A stretch of DNA of 64,000 nt from a virus (UHGV-1373362), one strand, 5' to 3'; shown: positions 5,201 through 62,710, counted from the stretch's first letter. Numbers and translations: made by a program. Notes: generated from the letters alone by a model not told the origin.

Positions 5201-8200
5201 AGTAATTTCATATATACTAAAATAAATGACATTGTTTCCCCTATAATTTCTAGGGGCTATGTTAATCCAGAAGTAAGACAGACTCTTCTAGATACAATAC
5301 AAGCTGCTGAGAATTACTTCTATATGGCAGAAAACGAAGCTTCATCCTCTGGTGCTGATACTGCAACATATGAGCTTGCTATAGATGCTCTTACTAAAGC
5401 ATCGAGCCAATTAAAGAAGTTGCCACACTCTCCAATTACAGAGGTGTTGGATAGTTTCGCATTAAGTATTACTGACAATGGTATAAAGTTTTCTAAACTA
5501 CTGCAAGATTTAGATGAACAACTTCTCAATGCACAAGAGGATCTATCCACATTTGATATAGATAATCAGGTTGGGGCACAGATTGATGAAGCTTTACATA
5601 TCTTACAAGCAGCTAAAAGTATTGTTCTAGCAACTAGAACTGACTCTACAACAATAGACAATTTATTTGGATACAATTCTACTGTAAATAGTCTAAAGCC
5701 GGAAGTACAAGTAGCTGAGATACAAGCCCCTATAGCTGATTCTATGATACAAGATCTGGAAATCTTGGAGAACAAGCTAAAATTCTTCCAAAGGCTTACA
5801 GATGCTAACAACGAGCAAAAGTTAAATGAGCAGTCTAAGACAGCAACTAATAAAGATTATATTACATATAGAAAATTAGTGCAGCTTGCAGATGCAATCC
5901 CAAGTAATTGGAAGGGTTCAGCAGAGTTTAAACTAGCTATAGATAGTCTTACTAATATAAAAGAGTTATCTAACATCAATAAACTTAATCTCACTAATGA
6001 TGAAAAGATATTAGTTGAGAAGGATAGAATTGCTGCTGAAGATGCTATATATACCTTGTTCGAAGCTAATCCTGATAAAGTATCCGACCCAGTAGAATTA
6101 TCTAAGTTTATCAATACTAAGAATTTTAACATTTACAACAACAATGAAGATGTTCTAGATTCCTCGTCTAAAAACATAGATGATAATTCATTTGTATGGT
6201 ATTTGGCTTCTAGGGCAGCTATTAGATCTACAGATTTCTATAATGAGTTTAAACAAATTATTAGGGATAATATTGCCCCACTTCCAACACAGGAGTTAGC
6301 TGTATACCTAGGATATGCATCTATTGCAAATGGCTCAATTATTGATTCTTTTGTAGATGCTATTAATGAATCTATAAAGAATGACTGGAAGACTTTATCC
6401 GATTCGGAGAAGAATGAAATAAATAAGAGAGTAAAACCAGCTATATATTGGGATTATCCATTGGATTCTTCTGTAGCTCCTAGATTTTCTAGGGTTACAT
6501 TTGTAGAAGGCATTCCTGGAAGTGGTAAGACTAGTGCAGTATTTGATACTATAGTTACTTTACTAAGAAAATTTCATCCAAGCATCTTAAACAATACATG
6601 GGTTGGCCATGCTACTACTAAAAGTGCTGAAGGGTTAGCTAATAGCCTAAACCTAGAGGGGGCTTCTAAGTTAGACAAGAAAGGTCTTATGAAGAAGATT
6701 TCTCCTAATTGGCATGAATCATTAGATGCTAACGGTAATGTAGATATTAATGATGATATGTATATTATGGATGATGAGGGGATATTAAGGTCAGCATTTG
6801 GAATAAATGAGGTTGATTCATCTTCTCTCCCATCTATTATATTTATAGATGAAGTTTCAAGGTATACTACATTTGATCTTGACTTAATTGAGAGGTTTGC
6901 TAAAAAATACGGCGTTCCAGTTATAGTGGCTGGGGACTTCGATCAAACTAGAGCCATAGGAGTACATAAGATACCTATAAACGGAAAAGAGGTTACTAAC
7001 TATGTACAGCTGTTTAGAAATAACTTCGTAAGAACTCCTAAGTTGGGGGTATCCATGAGAGCTAACAACTCTCAAAAAGTATTCAACATGAAGCTTATAA
7101 GATCTAGTCTGAGTGACTTGAGAAACAATAATTTCTCTGACGTTCTGACATTGCATTACTTCCAAGATGGGACTGGTTTATATGGTGATAAGGTATATGA
7201 TTCATACAACTATGACCAGAGCTTAGTCTCCAAAGATATAGATCTTATGATTAGTACCTTAAAAGAAGGTCAGAAAATCGGATTTATATACACTGATGTA
7301 AACACAGACATCTATAAACTACTTAGCACTGCAACATATAAGGATTATATAGACTGGCATGAGGGTACTTCTGCACAAGGGTTAGAGAATCAATATTATA
7401 TTATTGATGATTCTGATGCACAACCTGAACAGTACTGGAGTGATTTATATACTGGAATTAGTAGAGCTATGCAGGGTAGCATTATCATGCATACTAAGGA
7501 TTATAATGCTATGACTACATATTTTGAATCAGTCGCTGATACTATGACTAACGTAAGCCAGTTACCAGAAAAAAGTATTAAGGATTTCTCCCAGACTAGG
7601 AAAAAGCTATTAGAACAAGTAGTACCATCTGGAAATCCTATTAAAATTGTTCCCAGGAAAAAGGATAGTGCTATAGTAGCTATACCTCCAGTTAATCCAG
7701 AAGGAGGTCTAGAATCTACAGTGGTTGAAACCATAGATGATTCTGGAAATCCAACTACTGAAATTGTAACTAATGATGGACTTCCATCAGAGGAGGATTT
7801 GAAGAAAAAGACACTAGCCTCTAGTGAAGACCCAGAACATCCTGCAAAGGAAGTAATAGATTCCGATCCAGACTTAACTAAACCACTAGACCAATTGAAT
7901 ATGATTCTTCATACATTCAATACATTTGAATCTGGATGGGTTAAGGATCAGAATGGTGTCTTACGTCCTGGAGAGGATGCTGATTCGAGAATAGACAGCT
8001 TTAATGGTCTAAGCAAATTGAGTAGCCTTCCAAGCAGTATGCACAATGTAAACAGTTACACTGACTTAATTGGCCAACTAAGAAGCACTGTATTTAATAA
8101 TAAAGATAAGGCCGAGTTGGTCTCTAAGGTTAAATCAATTCTTAACTTAAACTCACAAGTTTATGCTACGTTTGCATTTAAGAGTTCTGCTGGAGTAACT

Positions 8201-10279
8201 ACCAATCAAAATTACGGAAAGTTCGGCAAGAATCCTTCAGAAGAGATTGATTTTGTATATGCACATGATCTTAGAACAAAAGAGGCTAGGAGAAAGGCCC
8301 TAGTATTAATAGTTGGGGAGTCAATAAATGGTAAAAATAACGATTTGTTAGAAATTCCATTAGCTACATTAACTTCTCCTTTGACCATGTTAAATCTTAA
8401 GGTCTTTTCAGGCATAAAAGACATATACAATGATATTAATATATCACACTCCGATAAAAGTACTCATTTTAGGCTTGGAGAGTTAAGAAAGAGGCTTTCA
8501 GGAAGTAATGCATACGGTAAGGATGTTTTTATCAAATTGTTAGACCTGTGGAATTTTACTCAAAATGGGATATTCTTTATCAATGATCCCACTTGGACAT
8601 TGGCTCAGAATTTCAAGTCTTCTGGTCCTACTATGGTAAATAAAATTAAAGGCTACGACTACGAGGTAGAAGGATTTGCGTATGATGCTGACTGGATTAG
8701 TTTAGAGGAGATGGGTGAGAACCCAGGAAGAAACATATCCAGTATCATGGTATCTCCACGTGGTACATATACTTATGGAGATTCCAAAGTTGTACAAGCA
8801 GCTGAACCTGGCCAACCATTTGTATTAATTACCGATGACATTTCACTTAGCGGTGATAGGCTAAGGGATTATTATTTAAACCAATTGGTTGATCCTAATT
8901 TGGAAAAGAAAGTGAAGTTGGTATATGTTATTCCTCCTAAAGCATCTTTCAAGTCTTATTTTGACAACCTGAAGGCTATCATTACCAAAGATGGAACTCC
9001 CAAGAATATAGGTAATAACCTTACCGCATTTAGGATGTTAGATATCCTAATGAGGCAACCAGGCTTTAAGACTTCTGAGTTAAATTATATAGACTCCGCA
9101 TATGATGGTATATTAGAAGTAGTAAACAAACTAGCAGGAATGAATACCATAAAGGACAGGCTAGCTTACTTAAAAACTTCTGTTAATATACAGGGCTTAA
9201 ACTCTAATATTAGTGTACAACAGGCCTTACAAAATTATCTACTTAGAATGGTATATCCTGGTAAGGCTGGAGGAGGTGTAGTATTTAAGCCAGAACTTCT
9301 AGCTAAGATAGAGGACATCATGAAGGCAAATAGAATTGATGGTATATTCTACGATGTTAAGTATGATAGAAACTCTAAAGGTGTAACTATGGTTGATGCT
9401 CAGGTTACTTCAAAATACACTATCGATGGTATTCCGTTCATGATAAACGGTAAGGTAGACTCTACTTCATTTTTTGGAAATGTATTACCTATGGTAGAAT
9501 CCACCCTTAATAAAATAAAGAAAAGTGGGAACTCTATTTCGTCTATAGATAATGCTAAGTATTTAGCTGGGGATTCCAATATCAATATTCCAACTAAGAG
9601 TCCTATCCAACAATTTATTGAGAACTTTGGTATAGAGATGGATGCTTCTGTACGTAAAGAAATAGAGGATAGATTCAAGGGAAGTGCTGGATACACCACA
9701 GATGAAATTTGGCAGTATTTAAAAGATACTGGGCATTTATCCTTAAAAATTGGAGGGAGAACATATATAAGTCAAAAAACATCCCAGTTTGAAGGGCTAT
9801 CTCCTACTGGAATTAATATGGTTCCAAAGACTAACAATATATATTCAGTTGACATGTCTATAGGAGAGGATTCCTACACAGGTGAGTTCAACTTAGCAGA
9901 TAGGGTATTGTTATTGGTTAAAGTTACTAATGAACCTACTACCCAAACACCTGCTGCTGAAGGAGTATTTGCAATAGAAACTAGGGATGAGTTGAGTACA
10001 TTCATACAGTCTCTCAAACCTATTACATTTGCCAATGCAAATTACAACAATTTAAAGAATGCAACAACAGTTGAGGAATTTAATACTAAAGTAAATGCGC
10101 TTCCTATTACACCAAAACTACTTAGTAAAATAGTAGACAAAGTTAATGACTTTGGGGATGGGCCTAATAAGGAAGCATTACAGAACTTAATAGATTTCTT
10201 AACAACTAAACTAAATATGAAGAAGTTCGTTCAGCAAACTGAACAATCTTGTCCAATAACAATTAAAGTTAAATTCTAA
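2234..10279 (+). CDS. giant 2681-aa protein with an embedded complete SF1 (RecD/Pif1/Dda-like) helicase core
   Basis: Uninterrupted 8-kb ORF. Internal motifs read directly from the translation: GIPGSGKTS (Walker A / motif I), IIFIDEVS (motif II), VIVAGDFDQ (motif III, GDxxQ), WHEGTSAQGLE (motif V-like), YTGISRAMQGSII (motif VI-like). Confidence 0.8.
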   Translation: MKNNTKENDLFLNIAANPTFSITNFRDVGLNASNTSLADENTYKNIPQIQENPLFQTDGKFDEAKFSDAYQAAAIAYNHLADETYQEDIIKQATFHRDDIFAEPEQRRQGPEVSLTRTPNPLRQKKGIRRINLLDEPTQSIDEIAQTQKVWDGATQTWHDSPNDSFWTDFWDTRVMAQWDFDADEQGRPTTDKDKIVYRKGDLKLNENGTYYYENLNGREVYGRRVLSKLNTLTTDGSAWNKYDFFDSDDLEKSVGGTFMKNVAMIAPMFIPYVGAWYVGAGIATEVAKVGSVLGKMFLGSDNQFLSAVEGFTQSLEPTSSQYTQDHAWSIENLLNLTGDVFKQLYEQRWLFKYAPAILKGNLGMSEDLQKAKQAEWVSEYMKTKILDINKIPSIKPDDVARATKELQAVSTLRAQTRLEDYMKEYNKVGELISKAYMTGITVQSAYGEAKQQGASDMEAALLTLGYAAGEYAIINSNLGKWILPELRMEKEQWKQIAKTLTQAGQKPLQNSPKEQKVQFMKKLFQMGKDIAQANYSVGKTTLKATGANAIGEGVEEVSEELLYDLAKSVSNLGSWLSGSDTRLTAWDDMTNRYGLSFVGGVIGGGVFDIASDVKSARNMKDLKYNDAYQQLVYMARNGKMNDFLNTVNKMSLGNKYLSATKQITTADGEVIWQQGTETDNQDLAAKTMLNQQAKMINDILAANSANISDDSFLEIQTLKDLRFSQLSNSSVAGRYLQDYNSICTDIIDLTNQLNNLNSTASKMEKGVTDQNERDNGEDLSTQTERSNLQAKLKEAIEKKDSYINGDRAPEYVKESIFEMSPALNSPFVSSTLIRYIESQSGKRVDECSKAEIAKYKLEYESLNKTDRRDRIHQAFMIFNTMNEQTSPMFADHSMRYYESTDDVLNEHINILHKSINETLERLGSISDSEKFQDAAGNYLREKSSSITLTLVKTLGDQSDVDSWDRLISEPIDEDYSEADRNRDASKFLSNFIYTKINDIVSPIISRGYVNPEVRQTLLDTIQAAENYFYMAENEASSSGADTATYELAIDALTKASSQLKKLPHSPITEVLDSFALSITDNGIKFSKLLQDLDEQLLNAQEDLSTFDIDNQVGAQIDEALHILQAAKSIVLATRTDSTTIDNLFGYNSTVNSLKPEVQVAEIQAPIADSMIQDLEILENKLKFFQRLTDANNEQKLNEQSKTATNKDYITYRKLVQLADAIPSNWKGSAEFKLAIDSLTNIKELSNINKLNLTNDEKILVEKDRIAAEDAIYTLFEANPDKVSDPVELSKFINTKNFNIYNNNEDVLDSSSKNIDDNSFVWYLASRAAIRSTDFYNEFKQIIRDNIAPLPTQELAVYLGYASIANGSIIDSFVDAINESIKNDWKTLSDSEKNEINKRVKPAIYWDYPLDSSVAPRFSRVTFVEGIPGSGKTSAVFDTIVTLLRKFHPSILNNTWVGHATTKSAEGLANSLNLEGASKLDKKGLMKKISPNWHESLDANGNVDINDDMYIMDDEGILRSAFGINEVDSSSLPSIIFIDEVSRYTTFDLDLIERFAKKYGVPVIVAGDFDQTRAIGVHKIPINGKEVTNYVQLFRNNFVRTPKLGVSMRANNSQKVFNMKLIRSSLSDLRNNNFSDVLTLHYFQDGTGLYGDKVYDSYNYDQSLVSKDIDLMISTLKEGQKIGFIYTDVNTDIYKLLSTATYKDYIDWHEGTSAQGLENQYYIIDDSDAQPEQYWSDLYTGISRAMQGSIIMHTKDYNAMTTYFESVADTMTNVSQLPEKSIKDFSQTRKKLLEQVVPSGNPIKIVPRKKDSAIVAIPPVNPEGGLESTVVETIDDSGNPTTEIVTNDGLPSEEDLKKKTLASSEDPEHPAKEVIDSDPDLTKPLDQLNMILHTFNTFESGWVKDQNGVLRPGEDADSRIDSFNGLSKLSSLPSSMHNVNSYTDLIGQLRSTVFNNKDKAELVSKVKSILNLNSQVYATFAFKSSAGVTTNQNYGKFGKNPSEEIDFVYAHDLRTKEARRKALVLIVGESINGKNNDLLEIPLATLTSPLTMLNLKVFSGIKDIYNDINISHSDKSTHFRLGELRKRLSGSNAYGKDVFIKLLDLWNFTQNGIFFINDPTWTLAQNFKSSGPTMVNKIKGYDYEVEGFAYDADWISLEEMGENPGRNISSIMVSPRGTYTYGDSKVVQAAEPGQPFVLITDDISLSGDRLRDYYLNQLVDPNLEKKVKLVYVIPPKASFKSYFDNLKAIITKDGTPKNIGNNLTAFRMLDILMRQPGFKTSELNYIDSAYDGILEVVNKLAGMNTIKDRLAYLKTSVNIQGLNSNISVQQALQNYLLRMVYPGKAGGGVVFKPELLAKIEDIMKANRIDGIFYDVKYDRNSKGVTMVDAQVTSKYTIDGIPFMINGKVDSTSFFGNVLPMVESTLNKIKKSGNSISSIDNAKYLAGDSNINIPTKSPIQQFIENFGIEMDASVRKEIEDRFKGSAGYTTDEIWQYLKDTGHLSLKIGGRTYISQKTSQFEGLSPTGINMVPKTNNIYSVDMSIGEDSYTGEFNLADRVLLLVKVTNEPTTQTPAAEGVFAIETRDELSTFIQSLKPITFANANYNNLKNATTVEEFNTKVNALPITPKLLSKIVDKVNDFGDGPNKEALQNLIDFLTTKLNMKKFVQQTEQSCPITIKVKF
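6500..7500 (+). other. SF1 helicase-like P-loop NTPase core (motifs I, II, III, V, VI) inside the 2681-aa ORF, roughly aa 1425-1755
   Basis: Walker A at about 6508-6537, DE-box at about 6838-6861, GDFDQ at about 6931-6950, YTGISRAMQ at about 7443-7480. Spacing between motifs is typical of SF1 helicases. Confidence 0.65.
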
Positions 10280-26041: not shown

Positions 26042-26046
26042 CAATT

Positions 26047-26100
26047 TAGGGGCAACGCTGGTAGTAAAACTACTAGTATTGCCCCTATTTTTTTTATTTT
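26047..26100 (+). terminator. rho-independent terminator closing the plus-strand operon, at the convergence point
   Basis: aggggcaa (26048-55) pairs with ttgcccct (26079-86) and there is an inner gtagt/actac stem. It is followed by tattttttttatttt. Confidence 0.55.
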
Positions 26101-38215: not shown

Positions 38216-38220
38216 AATTA

Positions 38221-38258
38221 CAAAATAAAAAAGGCGAAGGCTTAATTGCCCTCGCCTT
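38221..38258 (-). terminator. rho-independent terminator (minus strand) after the 290-aa gene
   Basis: GC-rich imperfect 11-bp stem aaggcgaaggc / gccctcgcctt with a 6-nt loop. On the minus strand it is followed by ttttttattttg. It stands out against the AT-rich background. Confidence 0.7.
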
Positions 38259-38276
38259 CGTGTTATTGGTCTATAG

Positions 38277-40960: not shown

Positions 40961-41011
40961 ATTAGTTCTTATTTTCGTTTTGTATATTATACGACATCTT
41001 TATAATAGTAT

Positions 41012-41036
41012 GAGAGGGGCATTCATTACCCCTCTC
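41012..41036 (-). terminator. perfect 8-bp GC-rich hairpin immediately after the putative capsid gene (attenuator or partial terminator)
   Basis: gagagggg-cattcatta-cccctctc. The minus strand continues atactattataaag, a weak U-tract. Confidence 0.5.
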
Positions 41037-41058
41037 AATATATCTATTATTAATTTTA

Positions 41059-42480
41059 TTATGCTTCTTTCATGATGAAGCTTCTGTATGGAGAGAACAC
41101 TCCAACACCAGAATAACCCCAGTTAATAACCTTAGATGCAGCTACAGTACTGGAAACAATACCAGAGCTTAAACCATCCATACCACCAACACCTGGGTAT
41201 TTATTTGTAATGAAGTCACCACCCTTCAATGTAAACATTTGAATGGCAGGTTCACCACTAGTCTTATCAGCTGTAAGGTCTAGCATTAGACCAAATCCTT
41301 TATCAGAACCCCATTCACGAGAGAACGTTCTGTCTACTCTGAATGAAATAGTATTACCTCCAATTTCATAGCTATTGAATGTAGCACCAACGTCTACATA
41401 TCCATTAGCTTTCTTGGACCATAGATAAGTTCCACAAGTCTTGAATCTGGCTAACCAAGCAGATAGACAGTTTTGAATGTCTCCCCACATCTTCTCGTTA
41501 CAGATAAATACATACTTATTACCAGTTGGCTCCTCTGCTTTCTCGTTCATCATGGACATAGCAGTTGTAAATGCCTCTGGAGTAAGTTTATTGTAAACAT
41601 ATTTAGATGCAAACCTCTCTACTTGTGGAATAATACCATCTCCAATATAAATTGGACGACCAGTATCAGGATCAGAGATTGTTGGTTTACCATTCTTATC
41701 TACATTAGTCTTATTAAATAATAGACCGTTGTTACGAACCTCCAAGAAGTTTCTTAATAGATTCTTCTCAAGAGTGTCCATCTTATACATTACTTCTTTA
41801 GAAGCACCGTTGCCGTCACCTTGACCAATTTTGATGAATGTTTGCTCAAGAGGTTTAAATAATGCAGTATAGCTATCATCAACACGGTGTGTTGTAATGT
41901 AACCCCTATGTCTCTCAATATTGGATTGATATTTTACATATCCCTCTTCATGAGCCTCAGGCATAGCATTAGATTGGAATCTAGTAGTATCACCGATCTG
42001 GCAACCACTAAGGTCTAAAACTGTACTGTAGTCGTTATCAATCAATCTAACTTCTACTCTCCAATAATTATCTGCAACTCTAGTTGGTCTAGAAACAACT
42101 TGGCATTGTTGCATCGTTTTGTCAATCTTAAAGATGTCATACTTCTGGTAGTAATTCTCTTTAAATGCCATTACAATTGTGGAACCACCCTCTCCAGTAG
42201 TTGCCGGAACATCTGCGAACTCAACCCTCTTGATATAGTTAGTTTCAACTTCCCACTCGAAGTACATACTATCAATACTTCTATACTTATTATTTGACTT
42301 AGAATCCATATAGAAGATATTTCTCAAAGATTCTGTCAAGTAAGAAGCAGTTAAATTAGGGTAAAGTCTTGAAACAATACCAAGTCTTGTAGGTTTTGTA
42401 CCTAAGAACTTATAGAAGTCTTCATAAGTTCTAGTTTCCCCCATAGTGGGGCGATTAGTTACGAAATTTGCTACTATCAT
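41059..42480 (-). CDS. putative major capsid protein (473 aa)
   Basis: Inferred from position only. It lies directly downstream of an acidic coiled-coil scaffold-like gene and is followed by a GC hairpin. Size fits an HK97-fold MCP. No sequence motif was confirmed. Confidence 0.45.
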   Translation of the reverse strand: MIVANFVTNRPTMGETRTYEDFYKFLGTKPTRLGIVSRLYPNLTASYLTESLRNIFYMDSKSNNKYRSIDSMYFEWEVETNYIKRVEFADVPATTGEGGSTIVMAFKENYYQKYDIFKIDKTMQQCQVVSRPTRVADNYWRVEVRLIDNDYSTVLDLSGCQIGDTTRFQSNAMPEAHEEGYVKYQSNIERHRGYITTHRVDDSYTALFKPLEQTFIKIGQGDGNGASKEVMYKMDTLEKNLLRNFLEVRNNGLLFNKTNVDKNGKPTISDPDTGRPIYIGDGIIPQVERFASKYVYNKLTPEAFTTAMSMMNEKAEEPTGNKYVFICNEKMWGDIQNCLSAWLARFKTCGTYLWSKKANGYVDVGATFNSYEIGGNTISFRVDRTFSREWGSDKGFGLMLDLTADKTSGEPAIQMFTLKGGDFITNKYPGVGGMDGLSSGIVSSTVAASKVINWGYSGVGVFSPYRSFIMKEA

Positions 42481-43600: not shown

Positions 43601-43620
43601 ATTAATCCCTCTTAAAGTTA

Positions 43621-43660
43621 TTTGCAAAGTTAAATAAATTTTATCGTATGTTAAAACGAT
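43621..43660 (-). promoter_or_regulatory. candidate Bacteroidota-type sigma-A promoter: -7 TAACTTTG inside the conserved TTATTTAACTTTGC motif, with a weak -33
   Basis: The minus strand reads ...cgttttaacatacgataaaatttatttaactttgcaaataactttaagagggattaatATG. The same 14-mer recurs at 62671-62684. Confidence 0.4.
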
Positions 43661-43699: not shown

Positions 43700-44293
43700 T
43701 TAACCTTGAATTGCCTTTACATAATTCAATATACCATTTACATGAGTATTAATAATAGATCTTCTCCCTTCCTCTGATAGAAGGAATTCTACATCCTCTT
43801 TATTATCCTGAAATAAGTTCTCAGTGAGAACTGCTGGACAGCTAGTTTCCCTACATATAGCTAGGTTTTGCTTCCAATATACTTGTGTTTGTGAATATTT
43901 TCTTAGTGTTAGTCCCTCTGCTTGGGCTGCTTTAAATAAGCACTCTGCTAGTTTTTTACTTTTGCTTGAGCTATTATTCGATATAAATACACTCCATCCT
44001 TTTGCATTTAGCCAACTTGACCCATCACCAGCAGCATTACAGTGAATCGACACCAATACAGTATTAGCTCTACCATGTTTATCACAGTATTGGTTTACTA
44101 TTTTACATCTCTGCATCAGTGGTATATCTTCGTTGTCTTCTACTACTCTATGAACTTCAAACCCCTTGGAGGCAAGCTGTTTCATAATTTCATCTGCAAT
44201 CTCTCTTGTATACTTATATTCCCTGAGTCTGCCATCCGGGCTTCTTTTACCCGGAGTAGACTCACCATGTCCTGTATCTAATAAAATTATCAT
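43700..44293 (-). CDS. N-acetylmuramoyl-L-alanine amidase (Amidase_3 family), probable endolysin
   Basis: ILLDTGHGESTPGKRSPDG (DPGHGG-like), LVSIHCNAAG (SIHxNA) and AVLTENLFQDNKEDVEFL (E-x-gFisN) match Amidase_3 signature blocks. Confidence 0.85.
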   Translation of the reverse strand: MIILLDTGHGESTPGKRSPDGRLREYKYTREIADEIMKQLASKGFEVHRVVEDNEDIPLMQRCKIVNQYCDKHGRANTVLVSIHCNAAGDGSSWLNAKGWSVFISNNSSSKSKKLAECLFKAAQAEGLTLRKYSQTQVYWKQNLAICRETSCPAVLTENLFQDNKEDVEFLLSEEGRRSIINTHVNGILNYVKAIQG

Positions 44294-49333: not shown

Positions 49334-49398
49334 TTTAGTTTGTGTTTTAGATAAAAATAATAAAGGGAGACTATGTAACATAATCTCCCTCTGGTATC

Positions 49399-50274
49399 TT
49401 ACTGAGCAGTACAACTAGGACAAGTACTGTTAATAGCTGTATTTACTGCATTCCAGTTAGAAGCAGCTTGACCAGCATACATACCTGTTCCATATTGCGT
49501 AAACGGACTACAGTATAGTGGAGAAATACTAGGAACTGGAGCACATAAGTCACTGTAAGCATATTTCAACTGTCCAGTAATCTTATGGTCTAATTGTCTC
49601 TGTAAATCACCAGCAGCAACTAATAGTTGTTTCTCAGATTTGCAGCAGCAATTGTCTGAATATCTCTCAGCGTTTACTTTGTTAAGTTCAAACATTAGAG
49701 GTAAAGCAGCAGCAGTAGCAGCCTCTTTCTTCTCTAACTCATTGATTCTAGTGCTTAATCTCTCGAAGAGATCAGTCTTCTCCTGTACGTCTTGTTCTCT
49801 CCTCTTATAAAGCTCATCACATAATCTCATGTTCTGAGCGTTATCACGAGTGATTATATCAACGTACATTCCACTCTTCTCTTGTAGGTCTTCTACTCTG
49901 CCTTTCCAGATTTGGTTTGTTAGAATTTGAGTTTCGTTTCCAATTCTTTCGTTAGTAGCTAGATTTCTACTATTGATGTAAGTGTACAAGTCTACATCAT
50001 CTTGCAAAGATTGAACTCTATTGTTCCAAGCTAAGTTTTGTGACATTTCCCCTTGTACCATAGCAGTTTGCATAGCTTTCTCAGCTAGACAGTTGCCATT
50101 GTTTCCACCAAATAGACCTCCAAGGATTCCTCCGTTGTTTCCACAGCCGCAGCCACCGTTGTTACCGAATGCTGATAAAGCTGTTCCAATAATACCTAGA
50201 GTGAGAGCAGCATTGGTGCGACCCTTGCTACCAAATTTGTCCTCTGCCTCATGCATTGTCAAAAATTCTGCCAT
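49399..50274 (-). CDS. 291-aa protein with an N-terminal hydrophobic helix, a Gly/Cys-rich zipper and a coiled-coil (membrane-active or ejection protein?)
   Basis: ALTLGIIGTALSAFGNNGGCGCGNNGGILGGLFGGNNGNC, then a heptad-like region, then NCCCK. First gene after a promoter-like element. Confidence 0.5.
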   Translation of the reverse strand: MAEFLTMHEAEDKFGSKGRTNAALTLGIIGTALSAFGNNGGCGCGNNGGILGGLFGGNNGNCLAEKAMQTAMVQGEMSQNLAWNNRVQSLQDDVDLYTYINSRNLATNERIGNETQILTNQIWKGRVEDLQEKSGMYVDIITRDNAQNMRLCDELYKRREQDVQEKTDLFERLSTRINELEKKEAATAAALPLMFELNKVNAERYSDNCCCKSEKQLLVAAGDLQRQLDHKITGQLKYAYSDLCAPVPSISPLYCSPFTQYGTGMYAGQAASNWNAVNTAINSTCPSCTAQ

Positions 50275-50341
50275 AAATGTTGTGTTTGTGTGTGTTATTT
50301 TATCCCAATCTGTTAAGTGCGCTCCTTAACTTTTAATAATG

Positions 50342-50376
50342 CAAATTTACCCATTCTTAAAGGTCTTACCAAAGAA
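50342..50376 (-). promoter_or_regulatory. candidate Bacteroidota sigma-A promoter (-33 TTTG, 20-nt spacer, -7 TAAATTTG) upstream of the 291-aa gene
   Basis: The minus strand reads ttctTTGgtaagacctttaagaatgggTAAATTTGc, about 68 nt upstream of the ATG at 50274. Confidence 0.5.
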
Positions 50377-50380
50377 TAAT

Positions 50381-50436
50381 TGTTAACATATGTTAAAGAT
50401 ACCAAAATGATTTTGGGAATATCCTGGTATCTTTAA
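50381..50436 (-). promoter_or_regulatory. 12-bp perfect inverted repeat (20-nt spacer) abutting a 14-bp palindrome, between the giant LRR gene stop and the promoter
   Basis: ttaaagatacca (50393-50404) pairs with tggtatctttaa (50425-50436). The palindrome is ttaacatatgttaa (50381-50394). Confidence 0.55.
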
Positions 50437-50444
50437 CTAATATA

Positions 50445-53400: not shown

Positions 53401-56400
53401 ACTTTTAAAGTTGGATTATTTTGTCCAGCTAAAGATAATATCTTCAGTCCAGGACAGTTATCTATAGTTATCTGAGTTAGGTTACTAATGGAATTATTAA
53501 CAGAAGTATATGGAAGTGTTATGCTTTCCATTCCCTCACAGTTCTTAATAATTACAGTCTTAACACTACTTGGAATGTCTAATGTCTTTAAAGCAGGACA
53601 ATTGTTTATCTCAATATAAGTAAGCTTATTACAATCAGTTATATCTACTGTTGATAAGAATGACTGGTTAGATAACCTTAATTCAGTTACCTGAGTTCCA
53701 GCTAGCCTATAAACTTTTAATACTGCAGAATCTGGCAGAGTTACCTTAGTTATAGATGACTTAGATATATCAAGCTCTTGAATTTTTTTACACCCACTTA
53801 GATCTAATGTATAGGCAGAAGCTGTGGATCCAATTAACGTAACATTGCTAAGATCCAGCACCCTAATATTTTTTAATCCTATATTAGTAGAAGTGTTATA
53901 AACCCCACTTTGGAAGAAGTATGAAGCATCAATATTCTTTAAACCACTAAGATCTAAGTTTTGAATTAATGGTAGATTTATATTATCTAAACCTGTCCAA
54001 GGGTAACTCTTAAACTTAGTAAAGTCTGTAATATATTTGTTTGCATATACATACACAATAGTTTCACCCGTGGGCATTGGTAATATTACTGATGAAGGTG
54101 TTTCATCAATCCAAAATGCACCAGATGTCTTATCGTGGGAATATCTATATAATACTCTACTATCCCCTGTTATATCTGTGCCAAATCTTACAGCTGTTGT
54201 TGAACCAGTAGCCTTATTAGAGGCCCATAGTCCTGTAATAGGGGATTCTATAGTAGTTGGTAATAGACTTTGTCCATCTTTGTATCCGTACACACCATCT
54301 AAGAATAATACTCTTTTCTTGAACCAATCCTTAACATGCATCACACGATTACCATGTAAGAACTTTAGTTGGCTGAAGTCAGTACTATCTTGATATTCCC
54401 CTGTATTAGGATCATATGTTTTAGATATAGCAAGATATTTAATCTTGTAGTCATAATTAAACATAATAGATCCTGTTTTCTCAGTATATGACTGATAGTA
54501 ATCTTTAATAAACTTCTCTGGATCTGGGAATAGGTTAGTTCTTAGATTTACATATAATGACTCTAAGCTAGTTCTACTCTCAGTACTACCACTATCCATT
54601 CCGGCTAAATTCTCCAATACCTCCCAAATCCTATTCCACCAAGAAGCAAAATATTGTTTGTACATATCACTAGATACATAGTTCTTCTCTTGAGTGTATT
54701 GAGTTATACCTGTATCCTGTGCAGAGATATTATACCATCTATGCAAGTGTGCCCAATATTCTACAATATCCTGTCCAGCATTATTTAGGCCAAATGCGGT
54801 ATCCATATCATAGAAACAGCAATACCATACATCAGTACCCCAGCTTCTAATAGTTAAGTTCTTACACATGGAGTCTACACAACCAAATAGCAATGCTATT
54901 ATGAAGTATGCACAGGCATTATCCCAGTTAAGATGTTGGTCACATGCATTGAAATTATAATAAGCATTCTTATCCAAATCATAAAACTCCCCTTCAATAG
55001 GTTTCGTGGGGGTTTGGCCAGCATCATCCATTGTGTACTTTTGGATTCTGGTAAGAGCCATATTAGCCATTTGGGTATAGAATTTCTGCACCTGGTTATA
55101 GGCTGTAGCTTCATCCCTAGATGTATACATCACATCTCCCATAAACTGCACAATCTTCATATCATCTTGCTGGAATGCTCCTTGTGCAGATGAGTTCTGG
55201 TTTATTTCAACAGAATATGTTCCATTAGATAATCCCGTATTCCATTGCTCTACTTTCTCTGTATATTCAGTAACAATGGTAGGGCCATCTTGATTTACTT
55301 TTACATAATCAATAAGTAACTTTAATCCTAGGTTAAAGTATGCGTACCTACCTAAATTGAAATTATAAATACCACAGAATTTAGGCTGTTTAATAGTTCC
55401 ATCAGCATCAGGTGCATATCTAATAAACAGAAGAACTGGAAAACCTTCAGAGGTATGTTTGATTTTACCTCTAATTGCATTAGCTTTATCAGCATCTCCT
55501 CCCCAAACATCATTACCCAGTGACATAGGTGGGGTTGCACTAAATGGAGTAATAGACTGCCCACTACTATTAGTAGCTAACCCATTCACTATTTGACCAA
55601 TAACAACATTATTAACATGGGCGCTGTCAACCACATCGGCTTTTAATGTAAACTCATTTTCTGGCAGCCAATCGTCTTTAGGTTGGAATAACATGTTTTT
55701 ACCAGTTTGGTCAACATGTCCCATATAAATTTCATAGTTCTTAGCGTTATATGACAAAGAAGATGTACCTTGTAGACCAATACTCACTCCGTTATTCTCA
55801 GACACACCACTAGGAGTTGTAATAACTACCTTACCTTTACTGTCCTGATAAGTAATCTTTACGGGAAATTTCTTACCCATTACTTCTATTTTATCAGAAG
55901 CAGAGAATATAGCGGTTGAATAGGGTTCAAATAGTGTTGGACTATTAGATGTTTCTTCAACTAGTACAATAGGATATGGAGTATTAACCTCCATCTGTTC
56001 TACTAATTTGGAATATAGTTGTTCTCCAGAAAGAAATCCTCCCTTACCGCCATCTATTGTTTTATCCCATATAAGGCAATTGCCTGCATTATCAAATAAG
56101 TTCTTGGTTCTTAGCTCTGCATCTAAGGATGCATCTATACTTCCCCTAATAAGTCTGGCTTGTTCAGTTGCAGATATGTAATTTTGCACAATAGCATATT
56201 CACTCTGTGATGAAGTATATATCTTAAAATCATAGATATATACGTCCGAGAAGTTGCTTCTTTCTCCATTGTTATTCCTGCATCCTAAGTAGAAGTCAGT
56301 GCCAAACATCCAATCAATATCTGACTGAAGTACTCTACTTACAGCTGATAATACACCATTTACATAGATTTTGAAATACCATCCTGTTTTGTCCAACAAT

Positions 56401-61855: not shown

Positions 61856-61858
61856 GCT

Positions 61859-61894
61859 GATAAAAATAAAGGGCTATGTTATTCACACAGCCCT
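61859..61894 (-). terminator. hairpin plus U-tract (minus strand) immediately before the 1219-aa gene start
   Basis: agggct-13 nt-agccct stem. The minus strand continues tttatttttatcagcATG. Confidence 0.5.
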
Positions 61895-61905
61895 CGTTTA
61901 CTATA

Positions 61906-62358
61906 TTATGCTACGAATAAGCTATATAGAACCTCTAAGAAGTCAGGAGCACTAAGCTTTACTCCGTTGATCTCCACGTCATTACCTGCATTGACTTCTA
62001 CGATTTCGTTGAATTCATCCTCAGTAAACGTTGCTTCAACTGATACTTCCTCTTTACCCCTCTTATCCACGTAAGCATTGTACTCACTATTGATTTTATC
62101 GTTCCAAGTGCTAATTTGATCCTCATCTTCTTTAGTCTTGGATTCCTTCTGTAATAGATCAGAGTAACCTTCAGGAGTAAGTCCTTTTAAAAGTTCTTGT
62201 AAATCAGTCTCAAATTGCTTACGGATCTTACCCATTTCAATACGAATACTCATAATCTTAACCTTTAAGTCTTTACTTAGTTCACTATTACCATTGCTAA
62301 GTAAAATCTTAACAATAAAATTGTGCTTAGCCATTAATTCATTAAGTGTCATTGTCAT
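61906..62358 (-). CDS. hypothetical 150-aa acidic protein
   Basis: ATG ORF. Confidence 0.5.
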   Translation of the reverse strand: MTMTLNELMAKHNFIVKILLSNGNSELSKDLKVKIMSIRIEMGKIRKQFETDLQELLKGLTPEGYSDLLQKESKTKEDEDQISTWNDKINSEYNAYVDKRGKEEVSVEATFTEDEFNEIVEVNAGNDVEINGVKLSAPDFLEVLYSLFVA

Positions 62359-62366
62359 TTATCAAT

Positions 62367-62654
62367 TTAAATTTCTGTTGTTTCAATCTCACCTAAAGTA
62401 GCATCAAACAGGTTACTAGCTGTTTCAAATAAATCTGATGGTATCTCTCCAATTGATTTACTTACTCTTCCGTCAGATGTTTCTGAGTAATTAAAATTAC
62501 CAATATACTCAACTGGATCTACCCTGTAAAATGATCCACTAAATCCAGAAATCTTTTTCAATTGTGATGATACTAATTCACCCTCTAGCTTAATTGTAGA
62601 TGTACTATTACTTACAGTACATAAACTTCTTTTGTTAGTAATTTCTATTGCCAT
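62367..62654 (-). CDS. hypothetical 95-aa protein
   Basis: ATG ORF, 17 nt downstream of the conserved TAACTTTG motif. Confidence 0.5.
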   Translation of the reverse strand: MAIEITNKRSLCTVSNSTSTIKLEGELVSSQLKKISGFSGSFYRVDPVEYIGNFNYSETSDGRVSKSIGEIPSDLFETASNLFDATLGEIETTEI

Positions 62655-62670
62655 AAATATTTATTTTGAA

Positions 62671-62710
62671 GCAAAGTTAAATAATAATATCTTGTAATCC
62701 AAGTCAATTA
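62671..62710 (-). promoter_or_regulatory. second copy of the conserved TTATTTAACTTTGC promoter-like motif (-7 TAACTTTG)
   Basis: The plus strand reads gcaaagttaaataa at 62671-62684, identical to 43622-43635. It lies between the tail-fibre stop and the 95-aa gene. Confidence 0.4.

Follow-up and report, generated by a model that had tools for sequence, protein, structure and literature searches.

Candidate host-type sigma-A promoters of late transcription units in the virion block of an uncultured crAss-like phage

The window analyzed here, a stretch of 64,000 nucleotides from the virus UHGV-1373362, contains two convergent gene blocks: a plus-strand block (99-26041) and a minus-strand block, running from 64000 down to 26094, that encodes virion and lysis genes (Table 1). 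By the Pfam matches of its capsid and muzzle proteins the window belongs to a deep-branching crAss-like phage (Crassvirales). Its major capsid protein is 24-26% identical to those of ICTV-classified Crassvirales, and the close GenBank records are unannotated gut contigs only. As the IMG/VR relatives include many contigs of 175-190 kb, the clade is probably the Zeta crAss group, an uncultured group (Yutin et al.) that spans 145-192 kb (PMC7886860). The plus block consists of seven giant ORFs, including those for proteins of 2681, 3136 and 1572 aa, with no intergenic gap; Pfam searches gave weak helicase-like matches to AAA_30/AAA_19 under the curated cut-offs and one PD-(D/E)XK nuclease match above cut-off. 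A scan of this block (99-26041) for TAnnTTTG-type promoters found none, and since it also lacks gaps its promoter must sit upstream of the window.

Two of the genes discussed below are without family assignment. The 367-aa acidic protein encoded directly upstream of the capsid gene matched nothing in Pfam or PHROG, and we call it scaffold-like from its position and composition alone. A PDB sequence match (8vd6, E = 5.2e-8) covers a single 22-residue stretch and was set aside as uninformative about its identity. Likewise, the 291-aa protein matched nothing in PHROG or Pfam, and a sequence-only search of PDB chains returned nothing significant (E = 0.7).

Table 1. Features of the window discussed in the text; promoters, start sites and transcription units are predictions.
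Feature	Coordinates	Strand	Details
Promoter P1	62667-62703	minus	-33-like CTTG at 62703->62700, 20-nt spacer
P1 -7 box, TAACTTTG	62679->62672	minus	predicted TSS A at ~62667; 13-nt leader to ATG 62654
95-aa and 150-aa genes	61906-62654	minus	putatively driven by P1
Intrinsic terminator, GGGCTGTGTGAATAACATAGCCC then TTTATTTTT	61859-61895	minus	after 150-aa gene, closes P1 unit; -18.1 kcal/mol, z = -4.8
Long hairpin without T tract	50392-50437	minus	after 2584-aa gene, just upstream of P3; -20 kcal/mol, z = -5.7
Promoter P3	50337-50373	minus	perfect -33 TTTG at 50373->50370, 20-nt spacer
P3 -7 box, TAAATTTG	50349->50342	minus	predicted TSS A at ~50337; 63-nt leader to ATG 50274
291-aa gene	49399-50274	minus	putatively driven by P3; no family match
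Intrinsic terminator	49352-49392	minus	immediately after 291-aa stop codon; -18.6 kcal/mol, z = -5.9; T tract follows
Promoter P2	43620-43656	minus	weak -33: TTTT at 43656->43653, or TTTA with 19-nt spacer
P2 -7 box, TAACTTTG	43632->43625	minus	predicted TSS at ~43620-43621
Leader of scaffold-like gene, UAACUUUAAGAGGGAUUAAU	43601-43620	minus	near-invariant in relatives
SD-like AAGAGGG	43613->43607	minus	6 nt before ATG; sole strong SD-like site of minus block
Scaffold-like protein, 367 aa	42497-43600	minus	acidic; directly upstream of capsid gene
Major capsid protein, 473 aa	41059-42480	minus	Pfam PF23898 Crass_capsid, E = 3.9e-14; second gene of P2 unit
Terminator-like hairpin, GAGAGGGGTAATGAATGCCCCTCTC	41005-41037	minus	just after capsid gene, closes P2 unit; -22.9 kcal/mol, z = -5.0
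crAss muzzle protein, 1566 aa	27957-32657	minus	PF25731, E = 3.6e-29
Bidirectional terminator	26042-26093		between the convergent blocks

In canonical sigma-A promoters of Bacteroidota, about 19-21 nt separate the -7 box from a -33 TTTG element upstream of it. A preliminary description of the window had noted matches to this consensus and proposed an intergenic search for its TAnnTTTG core; run on the window, that search returned 83 copies on both strands, of which three are intergenic, all on the sense strand. The 634 nt of intergenic DNA in the minus block hold these three sense copies, against 0.43 expected (P = 0.0096, 20,000 shuffles), and no antisense copy. The placement of the core in the window is thus beyond chance, at a modest significance (P ~0.01), so that the case leans mainly on the relatives, whose copies of each site are of common descent. 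The three boxes are positioned 18 nt (P1), 25 nt (P2, counted from the box G) and 68 nt (P3) from the ATG. All of them (TAACTTTG at P1 and P2, TAAATTTG at P3) fit TAnnTTTG with a TTTG-like -33 element at 19-20 nt. At P1 the -33 element (CTTG) matches three of the four consensus positions, as do both readings of it at P2 (TTTT at 20 nt, TTTA at 19 nt).

The same description had centered on a plus-strand 14-mer, GCAAAGTTAAATAA, whose reading on the minus (coding) strand is TTATTTAACTTTGC, with TAACTTTG inside it. It does occur exactly twice: one copy is at 62671-62684 as reported, but the other is at 43624-43637, 2 nt away from the reported 43622-43635, and the distances to ATG 62654 and ATG 43600 are 16 and 23 nt rather than 17 and 24. 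Conservation of the 14-mer as a unit could not be upheld. The window contains 66 distinct 14-mers with at least two copies (56 +/- 11 in Markov-1 random sequences), GCAAAGTTAAATAA with up to 2 mismatches has three matches where 1.6 are expected, and none of the 181 loci fetched has the 14-mer. We therefore rejected it as a special element: two sites that each match one promoter consensus well happen to agree over 14 nt, a repetition at chance level. A further element reported at 50342-50376 does exist, as TTTG-N20-TAAATTTG, but runs from 50373 to 50342 on the minus strand.

When one mismatch was tolerated in the -33 element, no other TAnnTTTG site was found within 100 nt upstream of gene starts in the window, and the other usefully sized gaps of the minus block hold strong hairpin terminators (61856-61905, 40961-41058, 38216-38276). 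Promoters of the E. coli type (TTGACA-17-TATAAT) are not enriched between 36000 and 52000 (61 matches, against 68.5 +/- 7.2 in shuffles), and none coincides with the three sites. One perfect TTTG-N19-TACTTTTG on the plus strand (55013-55043) runs antisense to the 2584-aa gene that contains it; this may be an antisense promoter, or one of about two such matches that the window should contain by chance.

Comparison with about 115 related IMG/VR contigs revealed that TTTG-N19/20-TAnnTTTG(CA) is kept at all three positions. TA and TTTG are almost fixed, and variation falls on the two n positions and the spacer, the pattern to be expected of this consensus and of purifying selection that acts on the boxes. 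Among 45 distinct instances in relatives, an exact TTTG lies at 19-20 nt in 37, C at -4 is kept in 41 and A at -3 in 42. In a set of 16 representative loci we counted 23 sense matches to the strict pattern TTTG-N18-21-TAnnTTTG outside ORFs, largely homologous copies of the same three positions; within coding DNA there were 0 sense matches (284 kb) and six antisense ones. The difference between sense and antisense coding matches (L001...L107, 16 loci) hints at selection against internal sense promoters. A candidate downstream leader motif shared between the sites (A-n-TT-A followed by a purine run, at about +15 to +25) is present in 64% of instances versus 30% of the background, but in only about 7 of 17 independent lineages, and was rejected.

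At P1, the search of IMG/VR found no relatives of the 95-aa protein, and 37 loci were instead fetched via the neighboring 1219-aa protein. Upstream of the 93-95-aa gene these relatives have at least eight versions that cannot be aligned with one another. At least seven of them carry TTTG, and one carries CTTG like the window, in each case 19-20 nt ahead of TAnnTTTG or a one-mismatch variant of it; the commonest lineage has the one-mismatch box TAACTTAG. Since TTTG would fall at the right spacing by chance in about 1% of sites, finding it again and again in unalignable versions is the strongest evidence for a bipartite DNA signal as opposed to inherited neutral sequence. In one lineage, a P1-type site is located upstream of a 148-aa gene instead.

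At P3, relatives with 64-91% protein identity keep (T/C)TTGG-N19/20-TAnnTTTGCA, and the spacer sequence differs between lineages. Together with its terminator, P3 and the 291-aa gene probably form a self-contained unit that would be highly expressed. Several minor features surround this site. A GTTAAC-N5-(G/A)TTAAC repeat just upstream of the -33 element (50380-50400, minus strand), which could be a regulator site or an UP-like element, is partly kept in relatives (L006, L051) at 76-91% protein identity. In one relative (L072), four tandem copies of the 15-nt CCTTTGCATTATCGA, located about 95-135 nt upstream of the 291-aa homologue (ATG near 5546), duplicate the 3' half of the -7 box and the predicted P3 start site. 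The leader (50275-50337) contains a small hairpin (GTTAAG-GAGCGCA-CTTAAC) and a conserved CTYAACAGAT. A conserved RNA structure was nevertheless rejected there, since divergent relatives yielded no consensus pairs in RNAalifold and the hairpin in the window is weak (-5.4 kcal/mol). Just before the ATG of the unit lies a (CA)n-rich tract whose length varies among close relatives in the manner of a microsatellite (e.g. L006 3170-3252, L018, L034). The TTG listed as the start of the gene that follows the 291-aa gene (49414) would overlap the terminator at 49352-49392 and is probably wrong.

To compare P2 we fetched 78 relatives of the 367-aa protein (46-75% protein identity), 77 of them full-length, and all 77 full-length loci have a TAnnTTTG box 32-33 nt before the ATG. 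An alignment of ten representatives shows T, A and TTTG(C) to be invariant, the box changing at its n positions only (TAAC, TAAT, TATT, TAAA, TATC). In most relatives an exact TTTG precedes the box by 19 nt. In many of them (L003, L004, L010 and others, ~9890-9975) an inverted repeat (AGGGGTGTYC ... GGACACCCCT) brackets the -33 element, so that a terminator-like hairpin of the upstream gene overlaps the promoter; this repeat is absent in the window.

The same alignments revise the start of the scaffold-like gene. The preliminary description had doubted the annotated TTG start (43627), and with reason: this TTG lies inside the -7 box, and relatives have frame-breaking 1-nt indels before the ATG, which give a TTG-to-ATG stretch of 29 nt in L027 and of 31 nt in L012, L063 and L064. 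Nor does the stretch vary at third positions, even though protein identity falls to 50%; it is therefore non-coding. In L001, L002 and L027 the first ATG is lost (AAG or ACG), so that the second ATG, equivalent to 43594, must serve there. By these alignments the gene starts at ATG 43600 or 43594 and not at TTG 43627, which corrects one gene start of the window.

The P2 leader, GCAAATAACTTTAAAAGGGAATAATATG, is more conserved in the alignment than the coding sequence after it and is predicted to be unstructured. Conservation this extreme points to selection beyond the promoter alone, and the leader may additionally promote translation of those late proteins that are most abundant. An 11-mer, TAACTTTAAGA, followed by G-rich purines is common to this leader and to that of T7 gene 10 (NC_001604 22935-22966), where it likewise precedes the start of a highly expressed head-assembly gene. 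The gene behind it is the capsid gene in T7 and the scaffold-like gene in the window, and phages and hosts are unrelated. Homology of the two leaders was rejected, as blastn gave non-significant matches to RBS regions of many AT-rich phages; the likeness is probably a resemblance by convergence or coincidence.

The architecture of P1-P3 is that of chromosomal promoters in Bacteroidota. TAnnTTTG is the sigma-A box at -12 to -5 in Flavobacterium psychrophilum (PMC9723704) and is found ahead of 81% of the primary TSSs of B. thetaiotaomicron (PMC7366714), and the TTTG element has been published as located "around -33" (PMC7366714, PMC9723704). Promoters of sigma-ABfr have the same boxes and geometry, a spacer of 19-20 nt placing TTTG at about -36 to -32. 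P1-P3 differ from them in being phage-borne and not chromosomal, and in the C and A at -4 and -3 that are near-fixed in the phage clade.

Comparison with known phage promoters, which the preliminary description had recommended, yielded the same architecture. According to Drobysheva et al. (10.1101/2020.03.07.982082), early genes of the Cellulophaga crAss-like phage phi14:2 are transcribed by the virion RNAP, and its middle and late genes are rifampicin-sensitive and located behind a motif with -35- and -10-like blocks. In the same source, primer extension mapped host-RNAP-dependent promoters before g070, g075, g108 and g110, the E. coli sigma-70 holoenzyme transcribed phi14:2 promoters in vitro without phage factors, and similar motifs were predicted upstream of gp092 and gp093 homologues. 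At the four mapped promoters the phi14:2 genome reads TTG/TTTG-N20-TAnnTTTG, as at P1-P3. Like the window, phi14:2 has sense-strand intergenic promoters in its virion block, one of which, like P2, precedes the pre-capsid gene: g092, the 374-aa gene immediately ahead of the capsid gene, carries TTTG-N21-TATATTTG at 37 nt upstream of its ATG. The differences are that phi14:2 belongs to the Steigviridae and infects a marine Flavobacteriia host, unlike the window phage; that its "extended tripartite motif" is described with a third, upstream block (10.1101/2020.03.07.982082); that A tracts upstream of its -33 elements have no counterpart at P1-P3; and that several of its boxes come within 5-6 nt of the ATG, so that the mRNAs are nearly leaderless, where the distances here are 16-67 nt. 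Promoters of the unrelated Bacteroides fragilis phage Bf12P1 were predicted from intergenic TTTG-containing -7/-33 elements (PMC13139388), the same criteria as used here, and were backed by read-density steps; predicting Bacteroides phage promoters in this way is routine.

The same gene order is found in the Bacteroides phage crAss001 (MH675552), in which a lysis gene, a gap with a terminator and a protein of about 380 aa (gp31, 389 aa) are followed by the major capsid protein gp32. GTTG-N20-TATCTTTGCA lies 30 nt before the gp31 ATG, the gp31 leader AATAACTAAAGGAG resembles AATAACTTTAAGAGGG of the window, and it too has an SD-like site (AAAGGAG). The capsid proteins of crAss001 and the window are about 25% identical, and the 367-aa protein has no detectable similarity to gp31 (E = 0.31) or to phi14:2 gp092 (E = 1.1), so that the equivalence of the 367-, 374- and 389-aa pre-capsid proteins is positional only. 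A putative host-type promoter before the pre-capsid gene is shared by very distant Crassvirales (the window clade, crAss001 and phi14:2), and is thereby useful as an annotation anchor and, in the engineering of Bacteroides, as a supply of strong promoters. Within its first 50 kb, crAss001 has five sites with the strict pattern on the coding strand, four of which are intergenic. Two perfect TTTG-N20/19-TAnnTTTG sites, at 1625-1656 (27 nt before the tRNA array) and 41937-41967 (20 nt before gp45), are candidate host-type promoters; in the collection of papers searched we found no published account of them and no published TSS map for gut crAss phages, crAss001 included.

Taken together, these comparisons make it very likely that P1-P3 are genuine Bacteroidota housekeeping (sigma-A) promoters of short, terminator-bounded late units. 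The proposal that host RNAP drives middle or late units within the structural block is supported as far as sequence goes, in that P1-P3 share the architecture of the phi14:2 host-RNAP promoters. In the scheme we propose, whose start sites, host-RNAP dependence, timing and read-through we infer from sequence, host RNAP with the primary sigma factor would bind P1, P2 and P3 after the early phase and initiate about 5 nt downstream of the -7 box G, near the predicted positions 62667, 43620 and 50337. Transcription from P1 would cover the 95-aa and 150-aa genes up to the terminator at 61859-61895, that from P3 the 63-nt leader and the 291-aa gene up to the terminator at 49352-49392, and that from P2 the scaffold-like and major capsid genes up to the hairpin at 41005-41037, and genes past each terminator would be reached by partial read-through. 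Between the end of a unit terminator and the gene that follows lie from 3 nt (1219-aa gene) to about 50 nt (278-aa gene), and in a relaxed scan none of the three is followed by a promoter-like site. With strong terminators and no promoter behind them the model needs read-through, and the long genes past the terminators (1219 and 2584 aa; tail-fibre-like through endolysin; 278-317 aa) would depend on it or on something unseen. Host-type promoters are an already known way of late-gene expression in crAss-like phages, and the current understanding of their transcription is unchanged by this result. For an uncultured crAss-like clade of the human gut it adds testable unit boundaries: three promoters with predicted starts and five terminators.

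We weighed the sigma-A reading against three others. That a short, degenerate motif matches AT-rich intergenic DNA by chance, with no function, would be in keeping with the 83 copies of TAnnTTTG in the window, the strict pattern found once antisense in a gene (55013-55043) and the chance-level repetition of the 14-mer. This we find scarcely credible, given the probability calculated above for three sense-strand intergenic matches and the retention of boxes at all three positions down to 46-64% protein identity while their flanks change. Very improbable, if somewhat less so, is that the conserved blocks act in RNA, as a translation leader, an enhancer or a processing site of a longer transcript, with TAnnTTTG incidental. 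The P2 leader speaks for such a role, as it outdoes the following coding sequence in conservation, has an SD-like site and shares its 11-mer with the T7 gene 10 translational leader, which even holds TAATTTTG just upstream of that 11-mer. T7, however, has no TTTG at the corresponding spacing, and similar AT-rich RBS-like strings occur at chance-level E-values in many phages. Moreover, a function in RNA cannot explain a TTTG fixed at 19-20 nt across unalignable P1 variants, and it leaves unexplained both the restriction of variation to the n positions and the same bipartite pattern at the primer-extension-mapped phi14:2 promoters.

The remaining alternative accepts the sites as real late promoters for which host sigma-A is insufficient, a phage activator, RNAP modifier or anti-terminator being needed in addition. 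It would explain the additional near-fixed bases of TTTGCA (C at -4, A at -3) and why terminators directly behind the promoter-proximal genes have to be read through, and it fits the poor -33 element of P2 in the window and the strong terminator that ends each unit, with downstream genes lacking their own promoter. The phi14:2 counterpart genes switch on only in the middle and late phases (Drobysheva et al.). In the same study, however, phi14:2 promoters of the same architecture worked in vitro with plain E. coli sigma-70 holoenzyme; no extra motif up- or downstream is shared between the sites after control by independent lineages, and no candidate regulator was identified in the window. We consider this alternative unlikely. 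By analogy with lambda Q at PR', a phage factor acting at TTTGCA or the initial transcribed region could activate host RNAP or make it terminator-resistant, a regulated late system that we regard as unlikely too. Were it true, sigma-A recognition alone would not explain late expression in this uncultured clade, probably the Zeta group.

The sigma-A reading agrees with what can be deduced about the host. A Bacteroidota host, proposed in the preliminary description, is supported by the crAss capsid and muzzle Pfam matches, by Bacteroidales homologues of the endolysin and by the near-absence of SD sites. Three lines independent of the promoters (Crassvirales membership, endolysin relatives, few SD sites) agree in pointing to a Bacteroidales host, and the present analysis adds three sequence-based lines for such a host: promoter type, few SD sites and endolysin relatives. 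SD-less mRNAs are characteristic of Bacteroidota (PMC7366714). In keeping with this, and as is typical of their phages too, an SD-like motif is found upstream of 3 of the 32 genes in the window, below the 17% background, with the scaffold-like gene as the clear exception. The closest bacterial homologues of the endolysin (43700-44293) are in Bacteroides genomes (57-58% identity), and nearly all of its 63 matches are from Bacteroidales, with a few MAGs carrying other labels.
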